DNA of 64,000 nucleotides from Candidatus Falkowbacteria bacterium (GTDB taxonomy: Bacteria > Patescibacteriota > Patescibacteriia > Patescibacteriales > UBA12075): the NCBI GenBank assembly GCA_003514005.1, contig DOSJ01000004.1, forward strand, positions 101,533 to 165,532. Reading direction: 5' to 3'. Below, piece after piece: positions 1,018 to 27,462 of this stretch (its first letter is position 1; each line of letters starts with the position of its first letter). Both the position numbers and the translations under genes were made by a program. The notes under the pieces were generated by a model. It made no database searches, was not told where the DNA came from, and worked only from the letters and a program-made list of their open reading frames with translations.

Positions 1018-1019
1018 AT

Positions 1020-1178: not shown

Positions 1179-1181
1179 ATT

Positions 1182-4020: not shown

Positions 4021-4053
4021 ATTATTTCTATTATAATTTTATCAAATTTTGGG

Positions 4054-7000
4054 CTATTTTTCTCCGCTCCAGTCCTTACACAAAACCTCGGCTTGTTCCA
4101 ATACTGTTTTGGTTGCCAATTCCTGCTTGTCTGGGGGATATTTATATTTGTTTAATAACTTCTTAACCAAGACGCGAAGCTTGGCCTGTACGCTTTGTTT
4201 GAGCGTCCAATCAATAGAAGTATTTTTGCGAAGCATAACCACCAGCTCTTGAGCAATCTTTTTTAAAATATCATCGCCAAGTTCCATAATCGCACTATCA
4301 TTAGCACAAAGAGCATCGTAAAATGCTACTTCGTCTTCAGTGAGATTAAGATTTCCTCCGCGATTCTTTTCCTCGCGAATCTTTTTTGCCAACTCAACTA
4401 ATTCAGCAATAACTTGAGCGGCCTCAATTGTCTGGTTTTGATATTTCTTGATTGTCTCCTCAAGCATCTTGGCGAACGATCGTGACTTAACCAAAAACTT
4501 CTTTTCCATCGTACGAATCTCGTCATTCAAAAGACGTTTCAAAACTTCCAAAGCCACATTCTTGCGTTCCAAGCCCTGAACTTCCTGCAAGAATTCATCA
4601 GACAAGACAGCAACATTCGGATTTTTCAATCCAGCTGCGTCAAAAATATTTATAACCTTATCCGAAGTCACAGCGTCGGAAACAATCTGCCGGATAGCTT
4701 GATCGTAATCTTCCATTGTCGGTCCACCAAGACCACCAGTCTGTTCAAATTTAGCGATGAAAGCCCGGACAGTTTGGAAAAAGGCTACTTCGTCACGAAT
4801 ATGTAAGGCCTCACTGCTTGGCACCGACAGAGCAAAGGCCTGCGACAATTCAGCAACGCTCTGCAAATATCGTTTCTTGCCGTTTTCCATTCCCAAAATA
4901 TGATCCATGGCCTTGCCGGCAATTTCTGCCTTATCTCGAGCTTTGTCAGAAAAATATCCAGAATAATCAAAGCCATGATACATCGCCTTAACCGTCTCAT
5001 ATTTTTCAAGCATGATACTAATCGCATCCTCTTGCTTAACGGTCGGTGCTTCTTTACCTTCTTGTGTGTAATAAGAAAGAGCTTCCTTGAGCGACGGTGC
5101 GATGCCAAGATAGTCAACAATAAGTCCGCCCGGTTTATCTTTATAAACTCTGTTCACACGAGCGATTGCCTGCATCAATCCGTGACCTTGCATCGGCTTA
5201 TCAATATACATCGTGTGCATTGACGGAGCGTCAAAGCCGGTTAGCCACATATCACGAACAATAACGAGTTTGAGTTCGTCCTTTGGATCTTTCATACGAT
5301 CAGCCAACAAATCTCGTTCTTCTTTGGTATGAATATGCTTCTGATAATTTGCTGGGTCGCCAGCCGATCCAGTCATCACCACTTTTATAAAACCTTTTTT
5401 AATATCATCGCTATGCCACTGTGGTCGTAATTTTATTATCTCGTCATAAAGTTCAACGGCAATTCTGCGACTCATAGATACAAACATACCTTTGCCGTCC
5501 ATAACGCCAAGGCGAGCCTCAAAATGTTCAACAACATCTTTGGCAATCAAAGCAACTCTTTTCTCCGAACCGATCATAGCCTCAAGGCGAGCCCACTTAC
5601 TCTTGAGTTTCTCTTTCTTCTCCACTTCTTCGCCCTCAGTCAATTCTTCAAATTCGGCATCAATCTTTGGTGTTATTTCTTTGAGCAAATCGATCTTGGC
5701 CAGTCGGGCTTCATAATAAATCGGCACGGTCGCTTTATCCTCTACGGCTCGAGTAATATCATACACATCAATATATTCACCGAAAACTGCTCGGGTATTT
5801 TTGTCTGACAACTCAATTGGCGTACCAGTAAAGCCAATAAACGAAGCGTTGGGCAAGGCATCGTGCATATGGCGAGCAAAACCGTCTATAAAATCATATT
5901 GGCTACGATGAGCCTCATCGGCAATCACGATAATATTTTTACGGTCCGAAAGAAGTGGATGTTTGTCGCCCTTAATCTCTGGCATAAACTTTTGAATAGT
6001 GGTAAATACCACACCACCGGAAGCGACCGAAAGAAGCTTTTTGAGATCAGACCTATCTTGAGCTTGCTTGGGAGTCTGTCGGATCAAATCACTGCAATGA
6101 GAGAATACCCCAAACAATTGGCCATCCAAGTCATTGCGATCAGTAAGTAAAACTAGAGTTGGATTATCCAAAGCCTGAATGATTTTGCCAGCATAGAAAA
6201 CCATAGACAAAGATTTGCCAGAACCTTGCGTGTGCCAAACAACGCCGGCACGTCTATCACCATTGGCAGATGACGCTTCGGCTGTTTTTTCAACGGCTTT
6301 ATTAACTGCAAAATATTGGTGATATGCTGACAGCTTTTTGATTGTCTTGCTGACATTATTTTTAGAATCCTTTTCGCTCTCAAAGACAATAAAGTTTTTG
6401 ACGATATCCAGCAGTCGCTCTTTAGCGAAAACTCCCTTGATCAGAATTTCCAAGTCGTTAGTTTTAACAATCTTTTTGCCATCAACACTTTTCCAACCAA
6501 CAAAGCGATCCATATCAGCCGAGATCGTGCCAACAACGGCACTCTTTACATGATCCGCCAAAACGCAAATCTCGTTATAGGCAAACAAAGATGGAATCTC
6601 GGCTTTATATGTTTGGATCTGATTAAATGCACTTTTAAGTGTGGCGTTGGCATCGGCCGGGTTCTTTAACTCAAAAATAGCAATCGGCAAACCGTTCACA
6701 AAAATCATCACATCTGGTCGGCGATTATGATTATTCTCAACGACAGTGAATTGATTGACTGCCAACCAGTCGTTATTATTCAAATTCTTAACATCAAAAA
6801 GGTACACCTTGTCACCAGCGATCGTGCCATCCTCTCGAGCATATTCAACATCGGTGCCTTCAGTCAGCATTTTATGAAAGGCTTGATTGGCAGTTAAAAG
6901 GTTAGGGTTGGAGTAAGCGACATTAACCGCTTTTTTGATTGCTTCCTCTTGAGCGTCTCTAGGAATATTGGAATTTATTTGAGCGACAGCACTACGCAAA

Positions 7001-7158
7001 CGATCAACCAAAACGACATCCTTGTACGATTGGCGTTCTGGATGTTCACCATCAAAAGCAATATCCGGTCCAAAGGCAACGGAATATCCAAGGTCTTCCT
7101 CAAACCATTCAAGGATTGCTTCTTCTAAATCTGATTCAATGTATTTGTAGTGCTTCAT
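4054..7158 (-). CDS. hsdR: type I restriction enzyme R subunit (helicase/endonuclease)
   Basis: 1034 aa. SF2 motor motifs [11 protein letters not shown] (motif I) and [10 protein letters not shown] (DEAH), an N-terminal nuclease-type region ([16 protein letters not shown]), and an operon with hsdM/hsdS. Confidence 0.95.
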
Positions 7159-8753
7159 ATTGTTTTATTAAAAATACAATCAAGTAATTCCTTATAAACC
7201 GTTGTTGCTGGGACAATCTGCTTTGATAGTAATAACTTAAAATCATTTTGATTAATGCCGGTAGTTATACCGCACAAAGACATTAATTCTCCTGTAGCAC
7301 TCTTAACATCTCCATTCTGAATATCTGTAATTTTTGTAGTATATTGTTCGCTGGTCACAGCAGGATATTGTTTTGACACAATTTCAAAATCAAATAGATA
7401 ATTCTCAATTTCTTTTCTTTTCAACATTCTATTCATTGTTGGATTTGCGGCAACAAAATCTTCTCTTTGTTGATCTGTAGTTGATGTTCCATCGGCATTG
7501 ATATCTTTATCTTTAAGTAGACAAAGCTCGACATCCTTAAACGCCTTATTAAGAACCTTAAGAGCAATAGCGGAGTATTTATCAGGTTCTGTGTTTCCAC
7601 CACTTGATATAAAAAGAGTATCCGGTTCACTTTCTTCAAAGATTTTATTGTAAACCTGAGCATCTATTCCGGCCTCTGCACCATTACCACTAGCTTCTTT
7701 TTTACCCTCACAATAGATAATCTTTTTGGGGGCTACTAAACCAGTTAAATCTTCTAACGCTGTTTGAAAAATTTTTTGCCAATTATTTCTACTCTTAACA
7801 ATAGGTGTTAAAGTTTTTGGTTCAGATGCGTAATCACCGTCAAACGCTATCACGGAACATTTATCATTCAAGTTTTCTTTCAAGGCAGTCAGAAATCCTA
7901 TACTGTGAGTTGCGACCCAAAGTTGGCAATTATCTGGTATAATTTTTTCAATTTCAATAAGTAAATTTTTCTGGATGCCAGTGTTTAAATGTAATTCTGG
8001 CTCATCAATGATATATACAGTGTCATCAAATTCTTTACGTTTGAGATACAAATCCAATAGAATATCCACAACCTCCTTCTCGCCGGACGATAAAACATTA
8101 AATTCAAACTCTTTCGGCTGGCTTGGTTTCTTAAAATATAAAGAACCCTTGCCAGATAGAATGTCACCCTCATCTGATATCTCTAAACCAAGACATTTTT
8201 TTAATATTTCGTTTAACTCACCTATAATTTGAGTTTTTGCTTGCTTATCCGTAAGATCGTTAGATTTTCTGTAATCGGTGATATAGATATACAACCTTTG
8301 ATAGTTATTGGTCATTTTATCATCGAGATCAATCGAGGAACTAGCACCAATATTATTCATCTTTATATCGGGAATTCTCTGCAAACTAGTTACATTAAGA
8401 TTTGAATTGTAGCGATATGGATTTCGGTAATTAAAGATTGTATTTTGTTTTCCCGTTGCTTGCTTAGCCGATCTTGTTGTAGAAAAATTACCACTATCAA
8501 AAGTGATTTCAATATTTTGGTGATTATAGTTTGCAACACCCTCCATTGAATGAAACTTGAAGTCCTTTTGCCCAAATTGACCAACGGCTTCGTGTGCGTT
8601 ATTTAAATAGAGCATCCCATCAAATACACTGCTTTTGCCACAGCCATTCGGTCCAACCAAGGCAATTATTTTTGAAGGTGTTTCTCCAAGATCAATAGTA
8701 AGATCTTTAAATCTTTTGTAGCCATTTTTGAATTGTATCTTTTTAATTTTCAT
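7155..8753 (-). CDS. ABC/SMC-type ATPase fused to Toprim/DUF4435-like domain (OLD / GajA / fused PARIS AriA-AriB-like)
   Basis: Walker [10 protein letters not shown], signature-like LSSGEKE, Walker [11 protein letters not shown] and ATHS. The C-terminal third has IIYCEGKKE (Toprim Glu), LLKDKDIN (DxD) and [10 protein letters not shown] (EIENYL box typical of DUF4435/OLD). Its stop overlaps the hsdR start by 4 nt. Confidence 0.8.
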
Positions 8754-8758
8754 AAAAA

Positions 8759-9928
8759 TTAATTTACTCTAATTTTCCCGCTCATCAGTCGAGGTAATAA
8801 AGAATCCCGAACCTGCTCGAGGTTTTTTGTCTGGCTCTCATTTTCGAGAATCATTCCAAAAAATGCAGTCAAAATTTCATTAAATTTATCTAGTGTTTTT
8901 TTGTCAGGAATAATCATCGGGATACTATTCATGTTGGCCTGATTGATTTTTGGCTGAACAGCACCAGTAACAAACGGCATAATATCTACTTGATCCAGGA
9001 ACACTTTTATATATTCTGTCGAAAATCCGTTTTTACCCTGCAAAACATGAGCATGATTGTTGACCCATATTTTACCTTGAACATATTGAACAAATGGCGT
9101 TCCGTCTTCTTTAGCAACCGAACCATCTTCGCCAAGTAATACATATGTCCCGTCAAAAATAAAATCATCCACATAATCCATAATCGAAGTAGCACCGTAG
9201 TAAGGATAACAACCCTGCTTTTTCTCACGTTCTCGACTTGATAGAGGAATACGCTTTGAGTCAAAATTTATTATCGCCTCACCGAATGTACCCATTCTCC
9301 ATCCCTTGGGTAATTCATCGCCAATATCAATAAACCATTTTTTGAATAGTGAGTTTGCCAATATTTCAAGATTTTTATTGATTTTACGATTGAGTTCTAT
9401 TTTGTCATCAAGAGATGAAAGAACCTCAGCAATTTGTTTTTGTTCTGACAATTTGGGAACTGGCCATGCAGTGTCCTTTAAATGATCCCAATCAGCTCGA
9501 GGCATACGAGTACCACTGCTCCCTCCGCTAGCAGATTTAATAAAATCTTCACTGGCGAATAACCAAAATAACCAATCCTGATCAAAACCGGTCTTTGATC
9601 GAGCCACCCAAATGTCTGTTGAGCATATGCCTGAAAATTTAGGCCTGTATACCTTTCTAAAATATGGCCTTAATTTTCCAAACAAAATATCTCCGTCTTT
9701 AAAACGGAATTTATTACTTGTTACATCAGATGATTTACCAACAGAATTAAGAGAAAGAGCTTGTTGGTTTATATGTTCCAACCCTATATAAGAAAGCTCT
9801 TCGTCAGCACTAGGTAAATAGGCATCCTTAACAAGCTCGGCAAATTTATATAACTCCAAACTGATCCATTCCTCTGGAATAGTTCCGATCTCTGTCTCTT
9901 TATATTTTGTGGCGATTTCCGTTTTCAT
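8759..9928 (-). CDS. hsdS: type I restriction enzyme specificity subunit
   Basis: 389 aa with two target-recognition halves separated by the conserved central helix (VPKLSEQKQIAEVLSSLDDKIELNRKINKNLE) and the C-terminal repeat (LEQVRDSLLPRLMSGKIRV). Confidence 0.9.
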   Translation of the reverse strand: MKTEIATKYKETEIGTIPEEWISLELYKFAELVKDAYLPSADEELSYIGLEHINQQALSLNSVGKSSDVTSNKFRFKDGDILFGKLRPYFRKVYRPKFSGICSTDIWVARSKTGFDQDWLFWLFASEDFIKSASGGSSGTRMPRADWDHLKDTAWPVPKLSEQKQIAEVLSSLDDKIELNRKINKNLEILANSLFKKWFIDIGDELPKGWRMGTFGEAIINFDSKRIPLSSREREKKQGCYPYYGATSIMDYVDDFIFDGTYVLLGEDGSVAKEDGTPFVQYVQGKIWVNNHAHVLQGKNGFSTEYIKVFLDQVDIMPFVTGAVQPKINQANMNSIPMIIPDKKTLDKFNEILTAFFGMILENESQTKNLEQVRDSLLPRLMSGKIRVN

Positions 9929-9931
9929 AAC

Positions 9932-10267
9932 TTAAATCAAATTTTTTACAATAAGAAATCCAAATAACCCGATAAAGATAAAGCCAAGCGAGAGCAGAAT
10001 TGCTGTTATTGGATTGTGATGTATTTCTTTCCATGAGATCAATGCCGTGGGGCCGGTATAAACATTCGGTGGTTTAATAGTTGAAAATTTTTGTTCAGCA
10101 ATCCAATAAGATATGCCAATTAGTAGCATTCCTATTCCAAGACCACATAGATGTTTGTTTTGGATAAAATCAATCTTCACAGTGAAAGACATAAAAATAG
10201 CACCTACGCCAAGTAATAGGATTATTTTCCACCAAGTATCTATTTTTAAGCTTTCAAGAAATTTCAT
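9932..10267 (-). CDS. small integral membrane protein (111 aa, ~4 TM) inserted between hsdM and hsdS
   Basis: Track ORF with four hydrophobic segments. It lies 2-3 nt from hsdM and hsdS on the same strand. Confidence 0.55.
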   Translation of the reverse strand: MKFLESLKIDTWWKIILLLGVGAIFMSFTVKIDFIQNKHLCGLGIGMLLIGISYWIAEQKFSTIKPPNVYTGPTALISWKEIHHNPITAILLSLGFIFIGLFGFLIVKNLI

Positions 10268-10269
10268 AG

Positions 10270-11832
10270 TTATTTTATTTCAAACCCAACACTCTTCAGG
10301 TTTTTCTTTATTCTATCCTCGAGCTCTTTAGACTGCTTAAACTGATCTCCAAGTTCGGCGGTGACTTTGGTCATCTTATCTTCAAAAGTTCCGTCGTCTT
10401 CCTCGACATAATCCGAGCCGACGTAACGTCCGGGGGTAAGAACAAATCCATTCTTTTCAACCTCTGTTATTTTGGCCGCTTTGCAAAAACCTTTAACGTC
10501 TTCGTATTTACCGTTGATTGTTCGCCAAGCGTGATAAACACCGGTAATCTTTTTCAAATCTTCGTCTGTAAGCTCACGGTTCTTGCGAGTAACCATCGTT
10601 CCCATTTTACGAGCATCAATAAAAAGAATCTCGTCGTGTCGATTGCGGAATTTATGATCGTAACGATCACGAGAGACAAACCAAAGACACGCTGGAATCT
10701 GCGTCGTATAAAACAGTTGGCTTGGGAGAGCGACAATGCAATCAACCAAACCATTCGTGATCAAGCTTTGTCTGATGTCTCCCTCGCCGGAGGTGTTCGT
10801 TGAAAGCGAGCCATTGGCCAAAACAAAACCTGCGATGCCGGTGGGGGCCAGATGATGAATCATGTGCTGAATCCAGCCGTAGTTGGCATTACTAGCCGGT
10901 GGCACACCGTACTTCCAGCGGACATCGTCTTTGAGCCGTTCACCACCCCAATCGCTGATATTGAATGGCGGATTGGCAAGAATAAAATCTGCTTTTAAAT
11001 CTTTGTGTAGATCGTTATGAAAAGTATCGGCATTCTGCGATCCAAGATTGCCGTCAATACCGCGAATAGCAAGGTTCATTTTGCAAAGCCTCCAAGTGGT
11101 AGGGTTTGACTCTTGTCCATAAATGGCAAGATCGTGAGTTTGACCGCCATGTGCTTCCACGAATTTCTCGCTTTGCACAAACATGCCACCCGATCCGCAA
11201 CACGGGTCATAAATACGACCCTTATACGGCTCGAGCATTTCCACAAGAAGCTTGACCACTGACTGGGGAGTAAAGAACTCACCTCCACCCTTACCTTCAG
11301 CACCAGCAAATCTACCAAGGAAATATTCATAGACACGGCCGAGCACATCTTTGCTTCGGCTGGCTTTATCACCAAGACCGATAGAACTCATAAGATCAAT
11401 AAGTTCACCGAGGCGGACTTTATCAAGATCAGGACGACCGTAATTTTTGGCTAACACACCTTTGAGACTTGGATTGTCCTTTTCAATAGCAATCATAGCG
11501 TCGTCCAAAAGCTTGCCGATCTCTGGTTTCTTGGCGTTGGCTTTTAGATATTCCCAGCGAGCAATTGCTGGCACCCAAAACACACCTTCAGAGATATAGG
11601 CGTCTTTATCTTCTTCTTGACCTTCATAATAATCAGCGTCAGCCTTGATGGATTTGTAGACTTCCTCGAATGAGTCAGAAATATATTTGAGAAAAATCAA
11701 ACCGAGAACCACGTGCTTGTATTCGGCCGGGTCCATGTTATTTCGCATCTTGTCGGCCAGTGACCAGAGCGTCTCTTCAAAGCCGACATTCGCACCGTTT
11801 GATTTTTTATTTTTGGCGATTTCCTTTGGCAT
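10270..11832 (-). CDS. hsdM: type I restriction-modification N6-adenine DNA methyltransferase subunit
   Basis: 520 aa. HsdM N-terminal domain ([32 protein letters not shown]), SAM motif DPCCGSGGM and catalytic LANPPFN. Confidence 0.95.
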
Positions 11833-11835
11833 ATA

Positions 11836-12021
11836 TTATTTATCAATTATTTCATAATTTTCTTTATCACCGTTTACCCGGACATAGTCATCACAACCAT
11901 CAACGGCGATAGACTTACATTGGCAGTAAGTCATTTTTTTCTTGGTATCACCAAAAATCTCATCACCGCATTTTTTGCATTTGATGAAAGTTTGCTTTTG
12001 GGGTTTGTTGGCGATTTCCAT
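11836..12021 (-). CDS. small zinc-ribbon protein (61 aa)
   Basis: CKKCGDE...CQC...GC cysteine pairs. It lies 3 nt upstream of hsdM and 11 nt downstream of the AAA ATPase gene. Confidence 0.5.
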   Translation of the reverse strand: MEIANKPQKQTFIKCKKCGDEIFGDTKKKMTYCQCKSIAVDGCDDYVRVNGDKENYEIIDK

Positions 12022-12032
12022 ATTTAAAAAAA

Positions 12033-13466
12033 TTAGATCAATAAGAAGTAATCTAACGGTACCTTAATAACATTGGCATCTTCTAAGAGAGTAAGAGAGT
12101 TTCGGCAAACTACTACACCGTATTTGGCGGAGCCCACTTTTTTCATAGTACTCCTAACTTGGGTGCCCAGCTTTTCGCCCATACCTACTTCAATTGGGAT
12201 TATATTCTTTTCTGCAATAGTTAGAATAAAATCGGCACCACCCTTTGAACTATCGTGGTTCAAGGCACCTCGACTGCTGGCTACAAACTCACGATATAAA
12301 GTCATGGCAACAATATCTTCCATTAATCTACCCTTTTGTTGAGCAAATATCTGCGGATTGCCGGCAACCGACAAAAAAGCTGATCGCATAGCTGACGACA
12401 TAAACTGATATTTTGACGGCTTTCTTACTTTTTTTGTATTAGAACCATATGGCATAACCCTTATTAACAATTCAGCGTGCTCTAACACTTCGAGAATACT
12501 GGAAATAGTATTAACGCTGGTTTCAAGAGTTTTTGCTAAATTTTGCACGCTCAAAACTTCAGACTCGGCTAGCAGAAATAAAACTCTTTTAATATAACCA
12601 ATGGTTTTTTGATCAAAGCGACCAAGGCTTTGTACATCTTGATTGATAACCTTATCGAGCAACAAAGTTATAGTTTGATAGACACGAGCTTCGTCCTTAA
12701 TCCTAATTGCGAATGGGAGCGTACCAATTTTTAAGTACTCATCAATGTAATGGCGATCTACCTGCGACCAAAAACTAAGCACCGATTGTTCAAAACTTTT
12801 TAATTTATCGTATGCTTCTTTTGCTGATTCTGATGCAAATAAAGCATCTTTGATATTTTTCTTTAATCCAGTGACCGGGTATTTACCATCTTTGATCATC
12901 AAGAATTCGCAAAAACTTGTTGGAAATAATTTCTCAAAAATTGCTCGGCGAATAACATCCGGATTTGTTTGTAAAGAAACAGCAGAGGAACCACTGCAAG
13001 CCACAAAAACCTTGTTTGATCTGTCATAAACAGTCTTCAACACAGATGCCCACTTTGGGTCATATTGTGCTTCGTCAATAAAAATAAATAACGGCTTGGT
13101 CAGTTTTTCAAAACTCTCACCGATTATTTTTTCATAAGCAGATAGCACATCCTTAAGAGATGAGCCGAGAACATTTACCACTTCATCAAGCGAAATATAA
13201 AGCATTCGCTGTTGACCAACCTCTTGGTAATGATTAAGAAACAACTGAGCAAGAATTGTAGTCTTGCCAACACCACGCAGACCGGGAATAATTATCCAAC
13301 GATCTCGAGCTTCCGGATTATGCAAAAAATCCCTCAAATATTTATCAACTTTAATATAAATATTTCTTTGAGGATACTTTTTACCTTGCTCATCTTGCAC
13401 ATAGGACTGTAGCCGAAAAGGGGCTTGGACGAGCTGATTTTGTACATATTTAAGCGTTTCTTCCAT
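12033..13466 (-). CDS. AAA+ ATPase of the AAA_14/DUF4143 type with nuclease-like C-terminus
   Basis: Walker A PGLRGVGKTT and Walker B FIFIDEAQY. The C-terminal GADFILTI...IPIEVGMGEK resembles a PD-(D/E)xK D...E.K arrangement (inference). Confidence 0.8.
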   Translation of the reverse strand: MEETLKYVQNQLVQAPFRLQSYVQDEQGKKYPQRNIYIKVDKYLRDFLHNPEARDRWIIIPGLRGVGKTTILAQLFLNHYQEVGQQRMLYISLDEVVNVLGSSLKDVLSAYEKIIGESFEKLTKPLFIFIDEAQYDPKWASVLKTVYDRSNKVFVACSGSSAVSLQTNPDVIRRAIFEKLFPTSFCEFLMIKDGKYPVTGLKKNIKDALFASESAKEAYDKLKSFEQSVLSFWSQVDRHYIDEYLKIGTLPFAIRIKDEARVYQTITLLLDKVINQDVQSLGRFDQKTIGYIKRVLFLLAESEVLSVQNLAKTLETSVNTISSILEVLEHAELLIRVMPYGSNTKKVRKPSKYQFMSSAMRSAFLSVAGNPQIFAQQKGRLMEDIVAMTLYREFVASSRGALNHDSSKGGADFILTIAEKNIIPIEVGMGEKLGTQVRSTMKKVGSAKYGVVVCRNSLTLLEDANVIKVPLDYFLLI

Positions 13467-13915
13467 ATATTTTATATACTTTTAAAATGATATAGTAACA
13501 TCACTTACTATATTACTCTAGTGATATAGTAAAGTCAAGTGCCTGTTTATCCCCTAAAATAGAGGCTTTTTATAGCCATTTACTAAATGGGTGTTGACTA
13601 TATTTTCCGTATTTCAGCAATAGGACAATAGTGTCTCAAAAGTGAGAAGTGGACTGGAAGTAACCTTAAAGGTAACTTCCAGTTCAGATTTGAAAAAGCT
13701 ATTTTGACCAGTTAGATCACTGTACTGTGCAAAATCGGGACTTTTTGCACACTTCCGAGAAATTTTTAACGGTGCTATAATAAAATCAACAAATAAATAA
13801 TTTTTGCCTCAAGGGGCAACCTGAACGGTATTCCGTGCTCAAGGGCTCGTAATCGCTATCACTTTTTGTGGTATCGGTTACGAGCTCTTTTGTTTCTCGG
13901 GGCATAAGCAAAAAT

Positions 13916-14497
13916 ATGGAAAATGAATATGAAAAATTGGCTTTTCTTAAAGCCTTGATTGATCTTTTAGATCATCAAACAAAAACTCCGAAAAAAGTGT
14001 TTCTGTCGTCATACTTCCCCGGATTTGAGATAGACAGACAAAAGACACTGCTCGGGGAGTTAAAGAAAAACAAGCTGATAAAAAGTTTTATCTGGAAGGA
14101 CGGCGATTTTATAATTACTAAACCAAGCCGATCCGGAATAATTGAGTTTTTTAACAAAATTGAAAATAAAAAGAACAAGCCAAAAGAAACCGGTCCGATA
14201 GACAACAAGATCAGATTTAATGAACAAACCGGAGTGATAAGTATGGGAGGAAAAACCTGCCCTATTCCGATTAATACTAACCAATACTTCCTATGCAAAA
14301 CTATTTTCGCAGTCCCGTTTGGCACACTGGTCAAAGAAATAGACTTTTTGGATTTAATGGACTGGGCAAAGGATAGCAAGGACAGTGTCTATGACGCTAT
14401 GCGAGCAGTCAACAAGAAAATCAAGCGTGATTTGGGAATAGACAAGTTTTTGAAATGGAAAGTTAGACGCATATTTATTGATTACAAAACCGAATAA
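13916..14497 (+). CDS. hypothetical protein (193 aa from ATG; track start 13868 is GTG)
   Basis: Long ORF in the plus-strand module, preceded by an extended -10 like TGCTATAAT at ~13782-13790 and followed by an intrinsic terminator. No recognisable motif. Confidence 0.5.
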   Translation: MENEYEKLAFLKALIDLLDHQTKTPKKVFLSSYFPGFEIDRQKTLLGELKKNKLIKSFIWKDGDFIITKPSRSGIIEFFNKIENKKNKPKETGPIDNKIRFNEQTGVISMGGKTCPIPINTNQYFLCKTIFAVPFGTLVKEIDFLDLMDWAKDSKDSVYDAMRAVNKKIKRDLGIDKFLKWKVRRIFIDYKTE

Positions 14498-14527
14498 GGT
14501 GGAGTCCGTCCTGATTCGGACAGCAAA

Positions 14528-14566
14528 GAGCAGACTGAAAGAAAACGGTCTGCTTTTTTATTTGCG
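14528..14566 (+). terminator. intrinsic terminator
   Basis: agcagac-tgaaagaaaac-ggtctgct stem-loop followed by ttttttat. Confidence 0.6.
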
Positions 14567-14580
14567 GGCCGGCAAACAAT

Positions 14581-14763
14581 ATGCCGAAGCCAATAATCAC
14601 AAAGAAAATACCGCCTCTCACCCCAGTTCAAATGGAGGAAATTTTTATGGACAGATTAGCCGATCTGATTGTCCGGCTTTTAGATTATCGCTACGAGCAA
14701 AAAGAAAAAGAGAAACAAACTAATAATCAAAATGAATATGAAAAACCAAACACCGGACAATAA
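14581..14763 (+). CDS. hypothetical small protein (60 aa)
   Basis: Track ORF. Lys/Glu-rich. Overlaps the next ORF by 32 nt in another frame. Confidence 0.3.
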   Translation: MPKPIITKKIPPLTPVQMEEIFMDRLADLIVRLLDYRYEQKEKEKQTNNQNEYEKPNTGQ

Positions 14764-14995
14764 TTTTACTACCAGCGACTTCTATGTGGCCGCTTTTTTG
14801 CTCGCCTACAAATATCAACTTGTTGGCATAAATAAAACCGATGCTCGCCGGTTTCGTTTTGTCTTTGTTGACCAACCAGGACGACCCCAATTCGTGGAGG
14901 GTTATTTTTTAGGCTATACCGACGTGAACGCCAAGGAATTTGTCTTGGCGATCAAAGAGTTGAAATCACTGATGTATAACGACGCTATCAGTTGA
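14732..14995 (+). CDS. small protein, DUF5659-like (assignment from memory)
   Basis: TSDFYVAAFLLAYKYQLVGINKTDARRFRFVFVD... matches my recollection of the DUF5659 pattern common in small mobile elements. Unverified. Confidence 0.5.
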   Translation: MNMKNQTPDNNFTTSDFYVAAFLLAYKYQLVGINKTDARRFRFVFVDQPGRPQFVEGYFLGYTDVNAKEFVLAIKELKSLMYNDAIS

Positions 14996-15014
14996 AAATA
15001 ATTGAATATGAAAT

Positions 15015-15788
15015 ATGGAAAATTTGCCATTCGAAATAGATAACAATGATTACGTAAAGCTTCCCCGAAGCATCAAGACCGCCCTCGTGGACGGCTATTT
15101 GAGTTTCGAGGAATACTCAATCCTCGTCTGGCTGTGGATCAATGCCAATCCCCGGATCGGCCGAGCTCAAGTAAGCTATGCCGGACTTTCCAAGGACTTC
15201 AAAGAAAAGTATTCCAAGAATCACATCAACCGGTTGATGCTGAACCCTAAGCGGAAGAAGTGGATGTGGTTTCCCGTACAGCAAGGTCGCAGAAGTTCGT
15301 TCCATGTTGATATCGCCAGTTATCCCTTATCAAATGGTGGTTTTGTCAACATTGAAGTACGCCAGAAACAGAAGTTCTGCAGAAGTGAGGATAATATTAC
15401 AGAGCATTCACCAGCAGAAGTGCCGACAGAAGTTAGCGACGTTCAGCAGAAGTTGAAAAGCGATAAAAACGCTTTAGTAGATAGGTTTTCTTTCGGTTCG
15501 GAAAGCTCGCTCGGCAGAAGTTCCAAGAACGACAACGAGAAAGAAAATAAAAACAACCGATCGAATCGTGGTCGACCCGTAAGAGAATATACTCCCAAGT
15601 CTTATGAGGAACAGAAATGTTGGGAGATTGCCCAAGAGCTGGGAGAAAAAGATATGACCTTTATTCTTTCGGCTTTGAAAAGATACGGACTGGCAAGAAT
15701 TGAGGAGGCCTACCGGTCTGTAATGGATCAACCAAACGAGAAAATTCGGCACAAAGGTGCGTATTTCAATAAATTATTAACCCTTTAA
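15015..15788 (+). CDS. hypothetical protein (257 aa), possible DNA-binding/replication-organiser type
   Basis: Long ORF. Winged-helix-like N-terminus (YLSFEEYSILVWLWINANPRIGRAQVSYAGLSKDF) and a C-terminal ...IRHKGAYFNKLL tail of the kind seen in DnaD/replisome-organiser-like proteins (weak). Confidence 0.5.
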   Translation: MENLPFEIDNNDYVKLPRSIKTALVDGYLSFEEYSILVWLWINANPRIGRAQVSYAGLSKDFKEKYSKNHINRLMLNPKRKKWMWFPVQQGRRSSFHVDIASYPLSNGGFVNIEVRQKQKFCRSEDNITEHSPAEVPTEVSDVQQKLKSDKNALVDRFSFGSESSLGRSSKNDNEKENKNNRSNRGRPVREYTPKSYEEQKCWEIAQELGEKDMTFILSALKRYGLARIEEAYRSVMDQPNEKIRHKGAYFNKLLTL

Positions 15789-15809
15789 AAGATACTAAAT
15801 GATACCCAA

Positions 15810-16244
15810 ATGGCAAAAAATGTAGATATAAAAAACGAAAAATATCAGAACGCAATCCGCTTAAAATATAGTGATTTCACTTATTCAGAGATTGCCCAAC
15901 TGCTAAAAGTCTCTCACGTTACCGTAAAGAGATGGTTTCGGTCAGACGGTTTACTCAAAGACGAATACGAACGATATGAAAAAGAAAGAAATAAAGTTCG
16001 TGACAAAGAGACCGATACCGTCCTCATGAAGCATGCCGAAGTCGCATCCAAAATGTTGGTTAGTCTCATGGGTGCTAAAAGCGACGCCATGAAATTCCGA
16101 GCGGCCAAAACCATTCTTGATTTTGTCCGAGGTCCGGCTGGAGGCAGAGACGATGATCTCAATGATGAGGAATATAAAAGAAGTAGTCGTCAAATAGAGG
16201 AAATTTTAGAGAAATACAAGAATAAAAAGACTGTGGGCAACTAA
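15810..16244 (+). CDS. helix-turn-helix protein (144 aa), terminase-small-subunit-like/regulatory
   Basis: YSEIAQLLKVSHVTVKRWF is an HTH. Position just upstream of the recombinase gene. Confidence 0.55.
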   Translation: MAKNVDIKNEKYQNAIRLKYSDFTYSEIAQLLKVSHVTVKRWFRSDGLLKDEYERYEKERNKVRDKETDTVLMKHAEVASKMLVSLMGAKSDAMKFRAAKTILDFVRGPAGGRDDDLNDEEYKRSSRQIEEILEKYKNKKTVGN

Positions 16245-16327
16245 CGCTTAGCTTGTTGCCAAAAATAGCGTATGTTGTGTTTGAAGCTACATCTAAAATT
16301 ATTAGCCAAAATTAAAATGAAAATAAT

Positions 16328-18025
16328 ATGGAACATGCATTAATTTACTGCCGAGTCTCAACCGAGGAACAGGCCGAGGACGGCCACCACTCCCTTGCGA
16401 CCCAGCTCAAGCTCTGCAAACGAGCGATCGAGGAAAGTAACAAATTCAAACTGATAGATGACGGTGTTTTTGAAGACCCCGGACGATCAGCCACCAACAT
16501 GAACCGCCCCGGACTGCAAGACATGCTACTTAAAATCCAAGACGACAAAACAATCAGAGCAGTATTTATTCAAGACACTGACCGACTTGCCAGAAACGCT
16601 CTTGATCACATGCAGATCAAGGCGATTATGAAAAAGCATGATGTTGAACTTTTTTCTGTCTCCCAGCCGGGCATTACCGATAGCCCCGAGGGAAACTTTA
16701 TGGACTTGGTGATTGCCGGTGTGAACCAACTCCAATCCCAAATCACTTCCAGAAAAACTCTAAAAAGTCTTGAGCAGAAATTCTGGGAGGGTTGGTGGCC
16801 GACCGGTGTGGCTGTCGGATATTTAAATGCTGGCGAACCAGACGATGAGAAAAAGAGAATTATTATCGTAGACGAGGAACGAGCCCCACTTATTCAAGAA
16901 GCCTTTAAAATGTATGTGACCGGAGATTATTCGGTCTTTGAAGTTCGCGATGCTTTATACAAAAAAGGTTTTAGAACTCACGCCGATAAACGGCTCGCTC
17001 ACAGCAAGATGATTGAGATATTAAAAAATCCTTTTTACTACGGCGAGATGAGGTGGCGAGGATTAGTTAACACCGGAAAACATAAACCGCTTATAGATAA
17101 AGATTTATGGGAACGAGTCCAACTAGTTATGGCCGAACACAATAGATATGCCTGTCGACGGCAAAAATTCAATTTCATTCTGCGAGGCCTGACCTTTTGT
17201 GCCAACTGCGGTCAAAGATACACCGCCGAACATCATCCTAAGAAAAACAAATCTTATTACCATTGCAACCGATCTGGCGATCAGATTAAATGCCAAGATA
17301 AGTATGTGGAAGTTTGGGATATAGAACAGCAAGTTGCCAACTTGTTCAAGTACATAGAATTCACTCCCAATTTTACCGACAGACTGGTGACCAAGATTGA
17401 AAAGATTTACAGCGGTCGCAAAGAAGTGATTAATAAAGATAAGAAAGCCCTGAATACTCAAAAGATGATGTTTGAAAAGAAACGGGATACAGCCGAGGAA
17501 AAACTTTTTGCCGGATTAATCACTGATGACGACTTCTCCAGAGTAAAAGTTAAAATCAAAGAACAGCTCGAGCTATTGCAAGACGAATTGTATGCCCAAG
17601 ATAAAAAACTCAATATGAGAATCGATGAACTGCAAGATATGCTCTTATTCGTCCGCAATGCTTACGAAGCCTATACCAAATCACCGGATGAAATGAAAAG
17701 ACTATTCCTTGGCCTTTACTGGGAGAGATTTGAAGTAGCCAACAAAAAAATCCAAACCGTAATACCGTCACCGATCATAAGGGGGCTGATGCAAGCCGAG
17801 GACATGGTCTTTACCAAGAAATACAAAGAAATTACCGGTCCGAGAATAATAACCGACTTGGCCGTAGAATTTACACCATTCATAGCCGGCAAATCAAAAT
17901 CCAAGATTGCCCCTAAAACGCAAAAATCCCGACAAATTGCCGAGATTCCTGCAATGATATCCAATCAACCAAACTCGGTTATATTAGATACCGTTTGGGG
18001 TGAGGTACGGGAATCGAACCCGTAA
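16328..18025 (+). CDS. large serine recombinase (integrase)
   Basis: N-terminal resolvase catalytic domain ALIYCRVSTEEQ and DRLARN, recombinase domain, Zn-ribbon CANCGQRYTAEHH...YYHCN...C, and coiled-coil. The last ~10 codons are antisense to tRNA-His. Confidence 0.9.
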   Translation: MEHALIYCRVSTEEQAEDGHHSLATQLKLCKRAIEESNKFKLIDDGVFEDPGRSATNMNRPGLQDMLLKIQDDKTIRAVFIQDTDRLARNALDHMQIKAIMKKHDVELFSVSQPGITDSPEGNFMDLVIAGVNQLQSQITSRKTLKSLEQKFWEGWWPTGVAVGYLNAGEPDDEKKRIIIVDEERAPLIQEAFKMYVTGDYSVFEVRDALYKKGFRTHADKRLAHSKMIEILKNPFYYGEMRWRGLVNTGKHKPLIDKDLWERVQLVMAEHNRYACRRQKFNFILRGLTFCANCGQRYTAEHHPKKNKSYYHCNRSGDQIKCQDKYVEVWDIEQQVANLFKYIEFTPNFTDRLVTKIEKIYSGRKEVINKDKKALNTQKMMFEKKRDTAEEKLFAGLITDDDFSRVKVKIKEQLELLQDELYAQDKKLNMRIDELQDMLLFVRNAYEAYTKSPDEMKRLFLGLYWERFEVANKKIQTVIPSPIIRGLMQAEDMVFTKKYKEITGPRIITDLAVEFTPFIAGKSKSKIAPKTQKSRQIAEIPAMISNQPNSVILDTVWGEVRESNP

Positions 18026-18071
18026 CAGGAGCGCCACAAGCTCATGTGATAACCGTTTCACCAACCTCACC
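17996..18071 (-). tRNA. tRNA-His (GTG), intact, with encoded G-1 and CCA
   Basis: Hand-folded: G-1 + GTGAGGT / TG / GTGA-AACGGTTA-TCAC / A / TGAGC-TTGTGGC-GCTCC / TGTT / ACGGG-TTCGATT-CCCGT / ACCTCAC / C / CCA. Confidence 0.9.
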
Positions 18072-18079
18072 ATAATAAT

Positions 18080-18550
18080 TTAAATTTTAATATTGTGTAT
18101 ATGTACAAGATGATGGCAATTCCAGCATAGCCAAACCAAATTTTCAATATCGTTGTTTTTTCTATTAACATCTTTATGATGAACTAATAAAATTCTTTTA
18201 TCTTGAATGCCACATTTTGCGCATATTTGTTTTTGTCCGCTTTTTTTAAGTATATCTCTATAGACATTTAATCCTCCTTTCCATAATTTATGTTTTGGTC
18301 CGGAATATATTGTGTTTCTCCATTTAGATTGACAGGATTTATTACAAAAAAACTTTCCACTTTTTGAATTTTTTAATTCTTTTGGCATTTTCCAGATTTC
18401 TTTCCCGCATACTTCGCAGTGTTCGAATTTTCCTTTTTTTTGAATTACAGTTCGACATTCCACTGAACAACATTTACTCCAGCCCCTGGCTAAATGTGAA
18501 GGTTTCGCGTAAAACTCTTTTTTGCAATTTTTACAAATTACTATAGGCAT
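18080..18550 (-). CDS. HNH endonuclease with N-terminal zinc ribbons
   Basis: HHKDVNRKNNDIENLVWLCWNCHHLVH (HNH motif), and several CxxC pairs upstream. Confidence 0.85.
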   Translation of the reverse strand: MPIVICKNCKKEFYAKPSHLARGWSKCCSVECRTVIQKKGKFEHCEVCGKEIWKMPKELKNSKSGKFFCNKSCQSKWRNTIYSGPKHKLWKGGLNVYRDILKKSGQKQICAKCGIQDKRILLVHHKDVNRKNNDIENLVWLCWNCHHLVHIHNIKI

Positions 18551-18598
18551 AATGACATCATATTATTAGCGAAATAAAATGTAAATATACAAATGAAA

Positions 18599-18637
18599 TC
18601 CACAACCCGATGTTCTAACCGCTGAACTATGGCCACC
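18599..18637 (-). pseudogene. truncated tRNA-His: 5' half only (G-1 through anticodon loop)
   Basis: G + GTGGCCA / TA / GTTC-AGCGGTTA-GAAC / A / TCGGG-TTGTGGA, then an unrelated AT-rich sequence where CCCGA should follow. The sequence differs from the intact tRNA-His at 17996..18071 except in the anticodon loop. Confidence 0.75.
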
Positions 18638-18692: not shown

Positions 18693-19235
18693 TTAAATTG
18701 TGTAGAAATAAACCTTCTCACCAATCCCGCTTACTTCGATTACTTTGTCGGGTTTTTTGTTTGGGAGTAGAAAACTGTAGCTGATTACTTTTGTGCCTAG
18801 TCGGCATTCTTTTATTATTTTTGGTTCTAGGGTTTTCATTACCCCGACGTTTAGAAAACAATACAAGAGATCGGCTTTGCTAAAATCATATTTCAGAAAA
18901 TCAGTTTTTACTAGCTCGAGTTTGCTTTTGTGTATTTTATTTTTTAATTTGGCAATCAGTAGTGGCCAAATATAAAACTCTAAACCAATCAATTGTGCTT
19001 TGGGAAAAAATTGTCTAAGTGCGCGTAAAAATTTTGCTTCACCACAACCGATTTCCAAAACAACTGCATCTTGTTTTATATCTATTTCTTTTATTATTTT
19101 CTCTATGATTGATTTTCTCGTTGAGATAAAAGGGGCGTGGTTTTTGACTAATACATTAAATAAAACATAGATGAAATAAAGCATTATTATCATCAATGTG
19201 AAAATCACAAAATATTGCCAGATCAGTATTAGCAT
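18693..19235 (-). CDS. class I SAM-dependent methyltransferase with N-terminal TM helix
   Basis: Motif [12 protein letters not shown], 180 aa, hydrophobic N-terminus. Confidence 0.7.
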
Positions 19236-19236
19236 G

Positions 19237-19310
19237 TGTACCCGACAGGGTTCGAACCTGTGACCTACAGCTTAGAAGGCTGTCGCTCTATCCAGCTGAG
19301 CTACGGGTAC
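19237..19310 (-). tRNA. tRNA-Arg (TCT)
   Basis: Hand-folded: GTACCCG / TA / GCTC-AGCTGGATA-GAGC / G / ACAGC-CTTCTAA-GCTGT / AGGTC / ACAGG-TTCGAAC-CCTGT / CGGGTAC / A. Confidence 0.9.
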
Positions 19311-27453: not shown

Positions 27454-27462
27454 TAATGCAAA

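Follow-up and report, generated by a model that had tools for sequence, protein, structure and literature searches.

Two unrelated mobile elements, an HNH cassette and a large serine recombinase island, are probably stacked at one tRNA-His locus of a Candidatus Falkowbacteria genome. We analysed a 64,000-nt stretch of DNA, hereafter called the window. On its minus strand, a tRNA-Arg(TCT) gene is followed by a methyltransferase-like ORF, the 5' half of a tRNA-His gene, an HNH endonuclease gene and a complete tRNA-His gene, whose 3' end is overlapped by a recombinase gene on the plus strand (Table 1). The anatomy of the locus, the recurrence of its HNH–tRNA-His unit, the nesting of that unit and the positions of the junctions are shown by the sequences. 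The boundary between the two elements indicates that the serine recombinase did not cause the split of the tRNA-His gene.

Table 1. Features of the tRNA-His locus and the adjoining island, in window coordinates
Feature	Position	Strand	Basis
Conserved distal module: 108-aa, 105-aa and 52-aa ORFs, 342-aa membrane protein	1..1822	-	Identity to L018
Variable cargo: AAA_14/DUF4143 ATPase, type I R-M (hsdM, hsdS, hsdR), AAA_21 ATPase, 454-aa ORF, D12 adenine methyltransferase	1806..13466	-	Pfam
Conserved integration module: 193/209-aa ORF, small ORF, DUF5659, 257-aa ORF, HTH protein	13772..16244	+	Nucleotide identity, gene order
Large serine recombinase, 565 aa	16328..18025	+	Pfam Resolvase, Recombinase and Zn_ribbon_recom, all above cut-offs
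attL element arm (AACGGTATCTAATATAACCGAGTTTGGTTGATTGG...)	17940..17995	-	Four-way alignment of window, L107, L017 and L018
Complete tRNA-His(GTG)	17996..18071 (body 17996-18070, G-1 at 18071)	-	ARAGORN; Rfam RF00005, 56.3 bits (cut-off 29)
HNH endonuclease gene, 156 aa	18080..18550	-	ORF; invariant columns; profile and fold comparisons
HNH cassette leader, promoter-like TTTACA-17-TATGAT	18551..18598 (site 18585..18557)	-	Promoter scan
tRNA-His orphan 5' half, G-1 to position 38	18599..18637	-	Sequence reading, Rfam truncated match, nhmmer profile
SAM-dependent methyltransferase-like ORF, 180 aa (163 aa in other gene calls)	18693..19235	-	Weak Pfam matches to RrnaAD and Methyltransf_25
tRNA-Arg(TCT)	19236..19310	-	ARAGORN; Rfam 72.5 bits

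A broken and a complete tRNA-His gene

The first-pass annotation had described a canonical tRNA-His 5' half that ends after position 38 at 18599, and the sequence, Rfam and nhmmer results bore this out. The letters of the half are, in order, G-1, GTGGCCA, TA, GTTC-AGCGGTTA-GAAC, A, TCGGG and TTGTGGA, after which the gene breaks off. Embedded in a 2-kb context, the half was missed by the Rfam tRNA model (RF00005), but the covariance model supported its fold once the stretch was cut at 18599 (22.4 bits, E = 0.006, model positions 1-37, flagged as 3'-truncated). An nhmmer tRNA-His profile matched it over profile positions 1-38 (E = 5e-6). The half occurs once in the window and had no match in 100 shuffles. 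These results indicate that it is the left scar of a disrupted resident tRNA-His gene.

To look for the 3' half (acceptor strand TGGCCACC), we combined pattern searches, both exact and degenerate, with BLAST-short, local alignment to modelled 3' halves and an nhmmer tRNA-His profile. It had been reported missing from the window, and our searches agreed: none was found there or in the 8.8 kb past its left edge, and no method gave a score above the shuffled background. This region (73 kb) also held no repeat copy of the orphan half or of the complete tRNA-His, and no significant complementary-leader match to the 48 nt after the orphan half. In a genome collection not including the source assembly, the near-exact orphan 39-mer had no match, and a relaxed pattern matched nine loci, two of them from CPR bacteria.

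The complete tRNA-His was confirmed by ARAGORN and Rfam 8 nt beyond the HNH stop codon, where the first reading had placed it. It carries a GTG anticodon, an encoded G-1 opposite C73, CCA, an acceptor stem of the GTGAGGT/ACCTCAC type and a single U.C mismatch (pair 27-43); its nearest relatives are the tRNAs of L031, L071 and L030. The 5' halves of the two window genes are alike at 25 of 39 positions. The complete tRNA is not a hybrid, because its 3' half (ACCTCAC, GCTCC) is not complementary to the orphan (GTGGCCA, GTTC/GAAC, TCGGG). A model in which the cassette contributed just a 5' half to a hybrid tRNA likewise fails for L038 and L054, where the acceptor strand of the orphan does not match the 3' strand of the complete tRNA. 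We conclude that the complete tRNA-His is the functional copy, which travels or sits with the HNH gene, and that it is the site to which the recombinase island attached.

Upstream of tRNA-His, the tRNA-Arg(TCT) gene is a conserved neighbour that shows where the native tRNA-Arg/tRNA-His pair lies. The methyltransferase-like ORF lies between tRNA-Arg and the orphan half, outside the HNH cassette, and has a homologue in the same place in locus L071 (41% identity).

The HNH gene and its leader

The HNH ORF starts 48 nt past the orphan half, close to the 45 nt estimated earlier. The promoter-like site ends 6 nt ahead of the ATG, which suggests that the HNH mRNA is leaderless or near-leaderless, and the -35/-10 spacing upstream of HNH homologues is like that of the window. 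A CCACA(A/G) motif was found at -50 in about 35 of 73 loci; the window is without it.

Members of the HNH superfamily share a beta-beta-alpha-metal motif with a conserved His (the general base), an Asn and a His/Asn metal ligand, and often have two CxxC zinc pairs. In the protein of the window, the C-terminal HNH domain is preceded by two FCS/MYM-type zinc fingers. In 26 homologues, C110, C113, H124, H125, N137, C142, N144, C145, H146 and H150 were invariant (column pattern C..C, HH, N, CxNCH, H), and these conserved residues supply the superfamily motif. The Pfam thresholds were not reached (HNH_3, 22.4 bits against a cut-off of 24.8; HNH, 18.8 against 21.4). A profile search against the PDB matched the En domain of a group II intron maturase (E = 8e-4) and the HNH domain of IscB (E = 0.007). 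Foldseek matched the C-terminal 60-85 residues of the AF2 model (pLDDT 84) to McrA, VcaM4I, Gme HNH, IscB and I-HmuI with probabilities of 0.4-0.9, the best being McrA and Gme HNH (about 0.9), all with E above 0.03.

Recurrence of the HNH–tRNA-His unit in CPR bacteria

The promoter, the zinc-finger/HNH gene and the complete tRNA-His form a unit that recurs in CPR bacteria. A tRNA-His gene lay 6-60 nt downstream of HNH on the same strand in 75 of 80 metagenome loci and in contigs L019 and L024 (77 of 82 in all), so that the HNH gene occupies a constant insertion site directly upstream of tRNA-His, as expected of a free-standing homing endonuclease gene. In most HNH loci with upstream sequence, the nearest upstream tRNA was tRNA-Arg(TCT), usually 54-120 nt before the ATG. 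At least 14 of 73 HNH loci have an orphan tRNA-His 5' half that ends at GTGG(A), some 47-58 nt ahead of the ATG, and many further ones have more decayed remnants; the orphan halves range from flawless to barely recognisable. Across 16 orphan halves the D stem was 95% paired, with 13 double-change cells, a number reached by none of 500 shuffles, and these compensatory changes between loci indicate that the orphan halves were once different working genes.

Remnants of the resident 3' half were found 24-52 nt past the complete tRNA, clearly in L093 and L033 and, as an acceptor match of only 8 nt, in L085. They are exactly complementary to the orphan acceptor strand in L033 and L085 and have one mismatch in L093; nhmmer independently found the 3' scar in L093 and L033 only. 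As read from these flanks, the cassette in L093 and L033 (and in L085 by the 8-nt match) is nested in the anticodon loop of the resident tRNA-His. Locus L071 repeats the methyltransferase-fragment-HNH-tRNA layout of the window with a fragment 75-78% identical to that of the window, so the insertion event may be old. Four CPR tRNA-His loci fetched independently of HNH (L013, L015, L017 and L018, with no closely related occupied/empty pair among them) are free of the gene; in L018, tRNA-Arg(TCT) is followed after about 10 nt by tRNA-His.

The first-pass annotation had offered, as one of two alternatives, an HNH homing cassette that brought a cleavage-resistant tRNA-His allele and destroyed the resident one. 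The structural core of this proposal, a cassette with its own tRNA-His inside a broken resident gene, stands on at least 77 loci, the orphan halves and the doubly flanked cassettes of L093 and L033. A cleavage-resistant allele is the more speculative part: the cassette tRNA-His has the same anticodon loop as the presumed HNH target, and a comparison of orphan with cassette tRNAs revealed no significant difference at position 38 (p = 0.14) and no sequence signature of resistance. Viral contigs contained only weak HNH relatives, none similarly placed beside tRNA-His, and gave no sign of a phage vehicle.

The same loci bear on a rival explanation, in which HNH has long been inherited vertically within the tRNA-Arg/tRNA-His operon of many CPR lineages, either domesticated or merely stuck in place, the orphan is a relic of one or a few ancient rearrangements, nothing is mobile now, and the 5' remnant and the CCACAG motif were kept as promoter or operator of HNH. 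The tRNA-Arg/HNH/tRNA-His synteny is indeed very constant, and the window and L071 are alike in layout, methyltransferase included. Internal stop codons were present in only 3 of 82 HNH copies, leaving 79 ORFs intact, and HNH divergence (63% amino acid identity to L019) is like that of the housekeeping protein PNPase (59%), so long vertical inheritance fits as well as mobility does. The fixed motif at -50 and the better conservation of the remnants than of HNH third-codon positions in some pairs also agree with this explanation. We nevertheless consider it unlikely. The acceptor and D stems of the orphans differ and are linked by compensatory changes, which argues that function was lost independently, and a relic of few events does not match halves of such varied preservation. 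Nor does it match the cassettes flanked by both resident halves, the CPR loci with tRNA-Arg and tRNA-His and no HNH, or the pairing of similar tRNA-His genes with HNH proteins only 50% identical (L084 versus L061 and L099). HNH identity and tRNA identity tracked each other only among close pairs (overall rho 0.09), so this comparison does not separate vertical descent from cassette transfer.

Another explanation is that the orphan 5' half is itself functional. It might serve the cassette as a left homology arm for homing into foreign tRNA-His genes, with selection acting on the element, or it might be expressed as a tRNA half or belong to a split tRNA. The window fragment is flawless despite its possibly old origin, the orphan always lies where a left arm would be required, and among L036, L038 and L054 the fragments (89-92% identity) resemble each other more than the rest of these loci do, tRNA-Arg being 66-74% and HNH 55-62% identical, although such comparisons of short 5' halves are noisy, tRNA-His types being conserved in themselves. 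Many loci with an intact HNH have lost the fragment wholly or partly, and the window fragment has neither a 3' partner nor a complementary leader within 73 kb; a function of the orphan half is therefore quite improbable.

A serine recombinase island at the CCA end

Large serine recombinases are recognised by an N-terminal resolvase domain with a YxRVS(T) serine motif, a recombinase domain and a zinc ribbon. The protein of the window begins with MEHALIYCRVSTEEQ and has the catalytic domain, the recombinase domain and the zinc ribbon. The earlier observation that its 3' end is antisense to the last 30 nt of the tRNA was confirmed: the ORF ends in WGEVRESNP and a stop codon, and its last 9 codons cross attL into the tRNA, antisense to tRNA positions of about 47-76.

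We aligned the window with L107, L017 and L018. The tRNAs differ, and conservation begins exactly after CACCCCA, which places the attL boundary of the island at the CCA end of tRNA-His. The 4.3-kb module (window 13772-18022) shares its gene order with these loci, with a nucleotide identity of 92.5% in L107 and 76-79% in L017 and L018. The recombinases are 98% (L107), 86% (L017) and 85% (L018) identical to that of the window at the amino acid level, and each abuts a different tRNA-His. Among 779 recombinase homologues, an antisense-tRNA tail or a stop at the xG junction was found in about 93 of the best 120. These results indicate that members of this recombinase family usually target tRNA-His at its CCA end.

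The defence cargo of the relatives consists of an SNF2/N6_N4 methyltransferase in L017, AbiEii/DpnI/HEPN_AbiV in L018 and Fic in L107. Distally, the window matches L018 in two stretches, 1494-1812 (86% identity, L018 1145-1461) and 85-242 (67% identity, L018 440-597). The island is at least 18 kb long and runs out of the window on the left. A search of 27 kb for its far end (attR) revealed neither a P-arm nor the 3' half, and an inverted copy of the attL element arm, sought as the far end, was absent. The sequence downstream of the L071 tRNA-His had no counterpart in the window. An alternative C-terminal tail (AVVEDVRTVFER...) was considered as an attP read-through and rejected: it is absent from the window, and its counterpart in L109 is a different, non-tRNA target with no Rfam match.

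The other alternative of the first-pass annotation was that a serine-recombinase element including HNH and the complete tRNA-His entered the anticodon loop of the host tRNA-His, with an attachment junction at 18598/18599, thereby splitting the gene and carrying its replacement. The recombinase does adjoin the tRNA, the fragment does end in the anticodon loop, a classical sublocation of integration, and the 3' half could sit past the far end of the island; even so, this alternative is scarcely credible, being contradicted by junctions at CCA, where homology between near-identical recombinase modules stops beside other tRNA-His genes, by HNH-free upstream flanks in L017 and L018 (in L107 the contig stops 10 nt short of the tRNA, and this flank is out of view), by the absence of the recombinase from 81 of 82 HNH–tRNA-His units (it follows the tRNA in one), by the same orphan half in L071 with no recombinase, and by a spacer after the fragment with the promoter layout typical of HNH cassettes.

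Discussion

We infer the nuclease activity and specificity, the homing and the order of events at the tRNA-His locus as follows. An HNH cassette of about 0.65 kb, comprising a promoter, the zinc-finger/HNH gene and the complete tRNA-His, would have taken the place of the 3' part of the resident tRNA-His downstream of tRNA-Arg(TCT). The break lies after position 37/38, within the anticodon loop, and would have left the resident 5' half as a scar. The HNH endonuclease would cut cassette-free tRNA-His genes in or near the anticodon loop, and the donor cassette would be copied in during repair. Loss of the resident tRNA-His would be tolerated because the cassette supplies an intact one, and the sole working tRNA-His would then be tied to the cassette. 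The resident 3' half may be co-converted, deleted or occasionally kept. The serine-recombinase defence island would have integrated later, or independently, at the CCA end of the cassette tRNA-His, and with this point of integration the recombinase ORF would read 9 codons into the tRNA antisense.

We suggest, tentatively, that the HNH–tRNA-His unit may be a homing element that is active throughout the CPR and is of a kind new for bacteria. It would invade the anticodon loop of the single tRNA-His gene of its host, put its own copy in place of that gene and so be indispensable, because the only working tRNA-His would now belong to the selfish cassette. The TTTAT-CCACAG inverted anticodon motif at -50 would perhaps be a recognition site or operator, and the orphan half beside tRNA-Arg might act as a left homology arm when the cassette homes again.

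The closest logic is that of the mORFs of fungal mitochondria (Allomyces atp6; Glomus atp6, atp9, cox2 and nad3), in which an endonuclease ORF arrives with a foreign part-copy of its target gene (PMC3630166). The foreign copy assumes the function, and the displaced native piece stays adjacent, unexpressed and closer to the genes of relatives (PMC3630166). Like mORFs, the HNH cassette combines an endonuclease with replacement sequence and has a displaced native remnant alongside. However, mORFs supply a gene terminus, whereas the HNH cassette supplies a whole gene, a bacterial tRNA gene, and its remnant is a 5' half upstream of the endonuclease. The mORF enzymes are LAGLIDADG or GIY-YIG proteins, whereas the cassette enzyme is of the zinc-finger/HNH kind, and its mobility is presumed.

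The first-pass annotation had drawn a parallel with the free-standing endonucleases of phage tRNA clusters, and it is apt: in both cases a stand-alone endonuclease gene lies between tRNA genes. The tRNA-region endonucleases of phage T5 are likewise free-standing homing endonucleases in such a cluster. In the T4 tRNA cluster, the stand-alone endonuclease SegB cuts the tRNA-region DNA of relatives without it and spreads with co-conversion of flanking tRNAs (PMC2988022, PMC13096335). SegB is a GIY-YIG enzyme of a phage genome and is not known to leave a split tRNA gene, whereas the HNH cassette resides in the chromosome, keeps to a single tRNA species throughout a group of phylum rank and lies inside the broken target gene.

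In Patescibacteria, group I introns that carry HNH genes occur in the anticodon loops of tRNA-Asn/Asp (position 35/36), where they self-splice and the exon halves form one tRNA (PMC13011429). The HNH cassette shares with them the phylum, the anticodon-loop site and an HNH-family endonuclease, but its downstream tRNA is complete and its upstream half is dead. A group I intron was rejected at our locus: there was no Rfam Intron_gpI match at E <= 10 in window 17500-19500 or upstream of HNH in L019, and the downstream tRNA is complete. The split tRNA genes of Nanoarchaeum include a tRNA-His half ending next to the anticodon, as the orphan does. A split tRNA was rejected as well, with no 3' half or complementary leader in the window and the 8.8 kb beyond it and with an intact tRNA-His 0.5 kb away; bacteria are not known to have the splicing endonuclease.

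tRNA sites are a hallmark of tyrosine integrases, and there the 3' end of the tRNA is rebuilt from a common core of 25-76 bp. The island resembles such tRNA-targeting integrative elements in its site at the tRNA 3' end, an integrase beside the junction and an ORF across att, but it uses a large serine recombinase, and with its junction at or after CCA the tRNA body is wholly host DNA. An ORF also crosses the att site in the integration-dependent systems of mycobacteriophages (PMC8092301).

If mobile, the unit would be a homing endonuclease with a full replacement of an essential single-copy tRNA gene, nested in the gene that it broke. We found such replacement-carrying logic described only for fungal mitochondrial protein genes, and it is possibly new for bacteria. 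It would account for an HNH gene bound to tRNA-His across many CPR/Patescibacteria genomes and for a class of half-tRNA pseudogenes overlooked by tRNA finders. The compact zinc-finger/HNH enzyme is predicted to have a presumably long, conserved DNA target. By docking defence islands at the CCA end of tRNA-His, large serine recombinases would occupy a niche usually held by tyrosine integrases, and this recombinase family could serve as a ready marker for defence islands in CPR genomes. The tRNA-Arg/tRNA-His locus thus appears to be a hotspot where several selfish elements accumulate in very small genomes.

The source genome of the window is a groundwater Falkowbacteria. All 24 contigs read with an identical HNH protein keep the arrangement of the window, and the places shown for them belong to one groundwater project.

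Organization of the tRNA-His locus

The first-pass annotation had described a broken tRNA-His 5' half, an HNH gene, a complete tRNA-His 8 nt past the HNH ORF, and a serine recombinase whose 3' end overlaps that tRNA. Our analysis confirmed this order and its coordinates, as collected in the table.

Features of the tRNA-His locus in the window
Feature	Position	Strand	Remark
tRNA-Arg(TCT)	19310-19236	minus	
Methyltransferase-like ORF	19235-18693	minus	longest ORF
tRNA-His 5' half, 39 nt	18637-18599	minus	
Spacer, 48 nt, 5' half to HNH ORF	18598-18551	minus	
HNH ORF, 156 aa	18550-18080	minus	
Spacer, 8 nt, HNH to tRNA-His	18079-18072	minus	
Complete tRNA-His(GTG), with G-1 and CCA	18071-17996	minus	
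Large serine recombinase, 565 aa	16328-18025	plus	3' end inside antisense of complete tRNA-His

The 5' half, hereafter the orphan half, occurs once in the window and is real: the Rfam tRNA model called 18599-18637 a 3'-truncated tRNA (22.4 bits, E = 0.006) when the searched stretch was cut at the break, and missed it when it was embedded in 2 kb. The 3' half of the broken gene (TGGCCACC type), reported missing, was found neither in the window nor in the adjoining 8.8 kb of the 244-kb source contig, which belongs to a groundwater Candidatus Falkowbacteria genome. The HNH/tRNA-His arrangement was identical in all 24 contigs read that carry an identical HNH protein. The longest methyltransferase ORF begins on the base directly past the tRNA-Arg 3' end; other gene calls start it 51 nt further in (163 aa), and a homologue fills the same slot in the HNH locus L071.

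HNH gene and complete tRNA-His recur together as a unit

In the HNH protein, two FCS/MYM-type zinc fingers precede a C-terminal HNH motif whose Cys, His and Asn columns are invariant. Its profile reached two known HNH domains, one from a group II intron maturase and one from IscB, and its structural model (pLDDT 84) matched McrA, Gme-HNH and I-HmuI across the nuclease domain with weak E-values; Pfam matches were below the cut-offs. The protein collection contained 52 clusters of homologues, and JGI metagenomes at least 344 relatives, from which 80 loci were kept. The results showed a co-oriented tRNA-His(GTG) 6-60 nt downstream of HNH in 75 of these 80 loci and in the contigs L019 and L024, the exceptions being mostly contig ends. 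These findings indicate that the two genes form a recurrent unit. Its usual upstream neighbour is tRNA-Arg(TCT), 54-120 nt ahead of the ATG, and a serine recombinase lies past the tRNA-His in only one of the 82 HNH loci (L046). Internal stop codons in three of the 82 homologues (L100 and L102 at codon 36, L104 at codon 73) indicate that degenerate copies of the endonuclease gene exist. In L019, a second, broken tRNA-Arg(TCT)-like copy with two inserts (AGAGCACCAGCC...CTTCTAAGCTG...CGATTCCTAGTGGGCGTACA) lies between tRNA-Arg(TCT) and the HNH gene (5782-5900), and small GIY-YIG genes flank tRNA genes of this contig (738-1001 and 5398-5718).

The HNH cassette is probably nested in a resident tRNA-His

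We consider it probable that two elements are stacked in the window, one of them a cassette (promoter, HNH gene and tRNA-His) that sits inside a resident tRNA-His. Of the 73 HNH loci with enough upstream sequence, at least 14 had a 5' half that matched a tRNA-His profile from position 1 to 33-47 and lay about 47-58 nt ahead of the HNH start codon; ARAGORN called none of the orphan halves. They begin 1-10 nt past the upstream tRNA, which is the position of tRNA-His in HNH-free genomes, and terminate at GTGG(A), positions 34-37/38. Many further loci retain only a decayed D-arm and anticodon-stem remnant. The profile also revealed a 3' fragment 15-35 nt past the complete tRNA in L093 and L033. 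An 8-mer exactly complementary to the orphan acceptor strand plus C73 lies 24-52 nt past the complete tRNA in L033 and L085, and L093 has this 8-mer with one mismatch. These scars indicate that the cassette is flanked by both halves of the resident tRNA-His, clearly so in L093 and L033 and by the 8-mer alone in L085.

Across 16 orphan halves, 95% of D-stem cells were paired and 13 changes were double-sided, a result reached by none of 500 shuffles; slid registers gave 20-63% pairing. The orphan halves thus come from different, once-functional tRNA-His genes and not from one ancient relic. We also considered the complete tRNA-His as a hybrid of cassette and resident sequence and rejected this, because the window orphan (acceptor GTGGCCA, anticodon stem TCGGG) is unable to pair with the complete tRNA 3' half (ACCTCAC, GCTCC). 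The window orphan resembles the tRNA-His types of L044, L063 and L015, and the complete tRNA-His resembles those of L031, L071 and L030.

Upstream motif and the possibility of a long-resident HNH gene

In about 35 of the 73 loci (e.g. L045, L047, L058 and L091), a motif that reverse-complements the tRNA-His anticodon loop, (T)TTAT-CCACA[AG], lies exactly at -50 from the HNH ATG and is immediately followed by the promoter-like boxes TTGAC/TTTACA (-35) and TATAAT (-10). Where an orphan half is preserved, it forms the palindrome TTGTGGA-N(1-6)-TCCACAA. This motif, absent from window 18551-18598, might act as an operator or recognition site, or might mark a past repair. At the promoter-like site (18557-18585 in the window, and at homologue loci), the -10 box stops 6-9 nt short of the ATG. 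This spacing, together with the lack of any visible Shine-Dalgarno sequence at the window HNH gene or its homologues, suggests leaderless translation of the HNH mRNA.

The fixed position of the motif and the high share of intact HNH ORFs would also suit a long-resident, perhaps useful HNH gene in which parts of the remnant are regulatory. L071 shares the window's layout (tRNA-Arg, 41%-identical methyltransferase, orphan half, HNH at 56% amino acid and tRNA-His at 81% nucleotide identity) and has no recombinase. Its orphan half is 75-78% identical to that of the window, so the event may predate their split; the window orphan is flawless despite this possible age. In L036, L038 and L054, the orphans are 89-92% identical, with tRNA-Arg at 66-74%, HNH at 55-62% and the complete tRNAs at 72-83%. 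These observations keep the explanation alive, but HNH-free tRNA-Arg/tRNA-His loci exist among other CPR genomes and the covarying D-stems derive from different genes, and we regard it as unlikely.

The recombinase island and its attachment site

Three recombinase relatives (L107, 98%; L017, 86%; L018, 85% identity) lie in islands that each adjoin a different tRNA-His gene. A 4.3-kb module is common to the window and these three (92.5%, 76% and 79% nucleotide identity, respectively); leftward of the recombinase it encodes a 193-aa ORF, DUF5659, a 257-aa ORF and an HTH protein. The defence cargo differs, comprising in the window type I restriction-modification, two AAA ATPases and a D12 methylase. 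L018 reads tRNA-Arg, 10 nt, tRNA-His and island, without HNH; L017 also lacks HNH, and the L107 contig stops 10 nt ahead of its tRNA, leaving the upstream flank outside view. In the four-way alignment, the tRNAs are unlike throughout and conservation begins directly past ...CACCCCA, with (A/G)ACGGTATCTAATATAACCGA... The recombinase C-terminus is an in-frame antisense tRNA 3' end (...W|G..RESNP...) or a junction stop in about 93 of the 120 best homologues. Given this post-CCA junction and these C-termini, the nine last recombinase codons antisense to the tRNA are an integration by-product. Judged from these alignments, the adjoining tRNA-His is the island's predicted target rather than its cargo, and the predicted site is the tRNA 3' end, not the anticodon loop. 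The earlier proposal that the recombinase element inserted into the anticodon loop and split the tRNA-His is wrong and retains very little probability, as near relatives adjoin other tRNA-His genes and conservation starts past the CCA.

It is tyrosine integrases that classically use tRNA 3' ends as sites (PMC8092301); among serine recombinases, a family devoted to tRNA-His is unusual. The Levyibacteria contig L015 carries a 22%-identical recombinase that likewise overlaps a tRNA-His. Of the near-identical loci L044 (700-830) and L046 (640-720), the first is empty and the second is occupied by a different serine recombinase of 515 aa (L046 661-2208, minus strand). In L046, other sequence takes over the tRNA-His at the T-arm and ends with an acceptor strand that mismatches the 5' strand (C6.T67, A7.A66); this integration seems to damage the tRNA. 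A minority of homologues (P0007, P0053, P0066, P0074 and P0075) share another conserved C-terminal tail, (G)AVVEDVRTVFERRNDATIYIP. The DNA at this tail in L109 (9560-9650) is not a tRNA and had no Rfam match; the site may be a second conserved attachment target.

The island extends beyond the window's left edge, and its far end was not found. A distal module (window 1-1822, L018 149-1461) encodes a ~100-aa ORF and a ~340-aa membrane protein with a TspO_MBR match. Its nucleotide identity to L018 reaches 86% (window 1494-1812), above the integration module's 79%, and it may be a conserved element end.

Proposed mechanism and related systems

In the simplest reading, a free-standing homing-type endonuclease cassette would take the place of everything in the resident tRNA-His past a constant break point in the anticodon loop, supplying an intact copy of the essential gene that it destroys. 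The resident 3' half would mostly be lost by co-conversion or deletion and occasionally kept. We infer that the enzyme cuts, that repair copies the cassette and that the tRNA carried by the cassette is immune; the sequences showed no signature of resistance to cleavage. The recombinase island would then have taken the cassette tRNA-His as an ordinary attachment site, and a resident 3' scar, if extant on its arrival, would now sit past the island's far end. The first-pass alternative, in which an HNH homing cassette brought its own tRNA-His and destroyed the resident copy, was essentially right, and it generalises to a widespread, apparently undescribed cassette in which a free-standing endonuclease bears a replacement of its target gene.

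Full-text literature searches turned up no account of HNH genes coupled to tRNA-His in CPR bacteria. Among described systems, fungal mitochondrial mORFs follow the nearest logic: the endonuclease ORF brings along a foreign terminus to replace that of atp6, atp9, cox2 or nad3, and the native terminus stays behind as a silent remnant (PMC3630166). Free-standing endonucleases in phage tRNA clusters, T4 SegB among them, have the tRNA context in common with the cassette. A survey of Patescibacteria tRNA introns reported HNH genes only within group I introns of tRNA-Asn and does not mention the HNH-tRNA-His arrangement (PMC13011429).

Other observations in the window

Cumulative GC skew is lowest at about 13-19 kb (13000-19000), where gene orientation flips; the island boundary and the strand switch may be enough to account for this, with no replication landmark involved. 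Two intergenic AT-rich repeats of ~32 nt, AAAA[A/T]TTCTAAATTATAA[G/T]GTCTAATTTCTAA, lie 4.9 kb apart (22591-22661 and 27462-27527); they are 94% identical, and each has a partly inverted companion.
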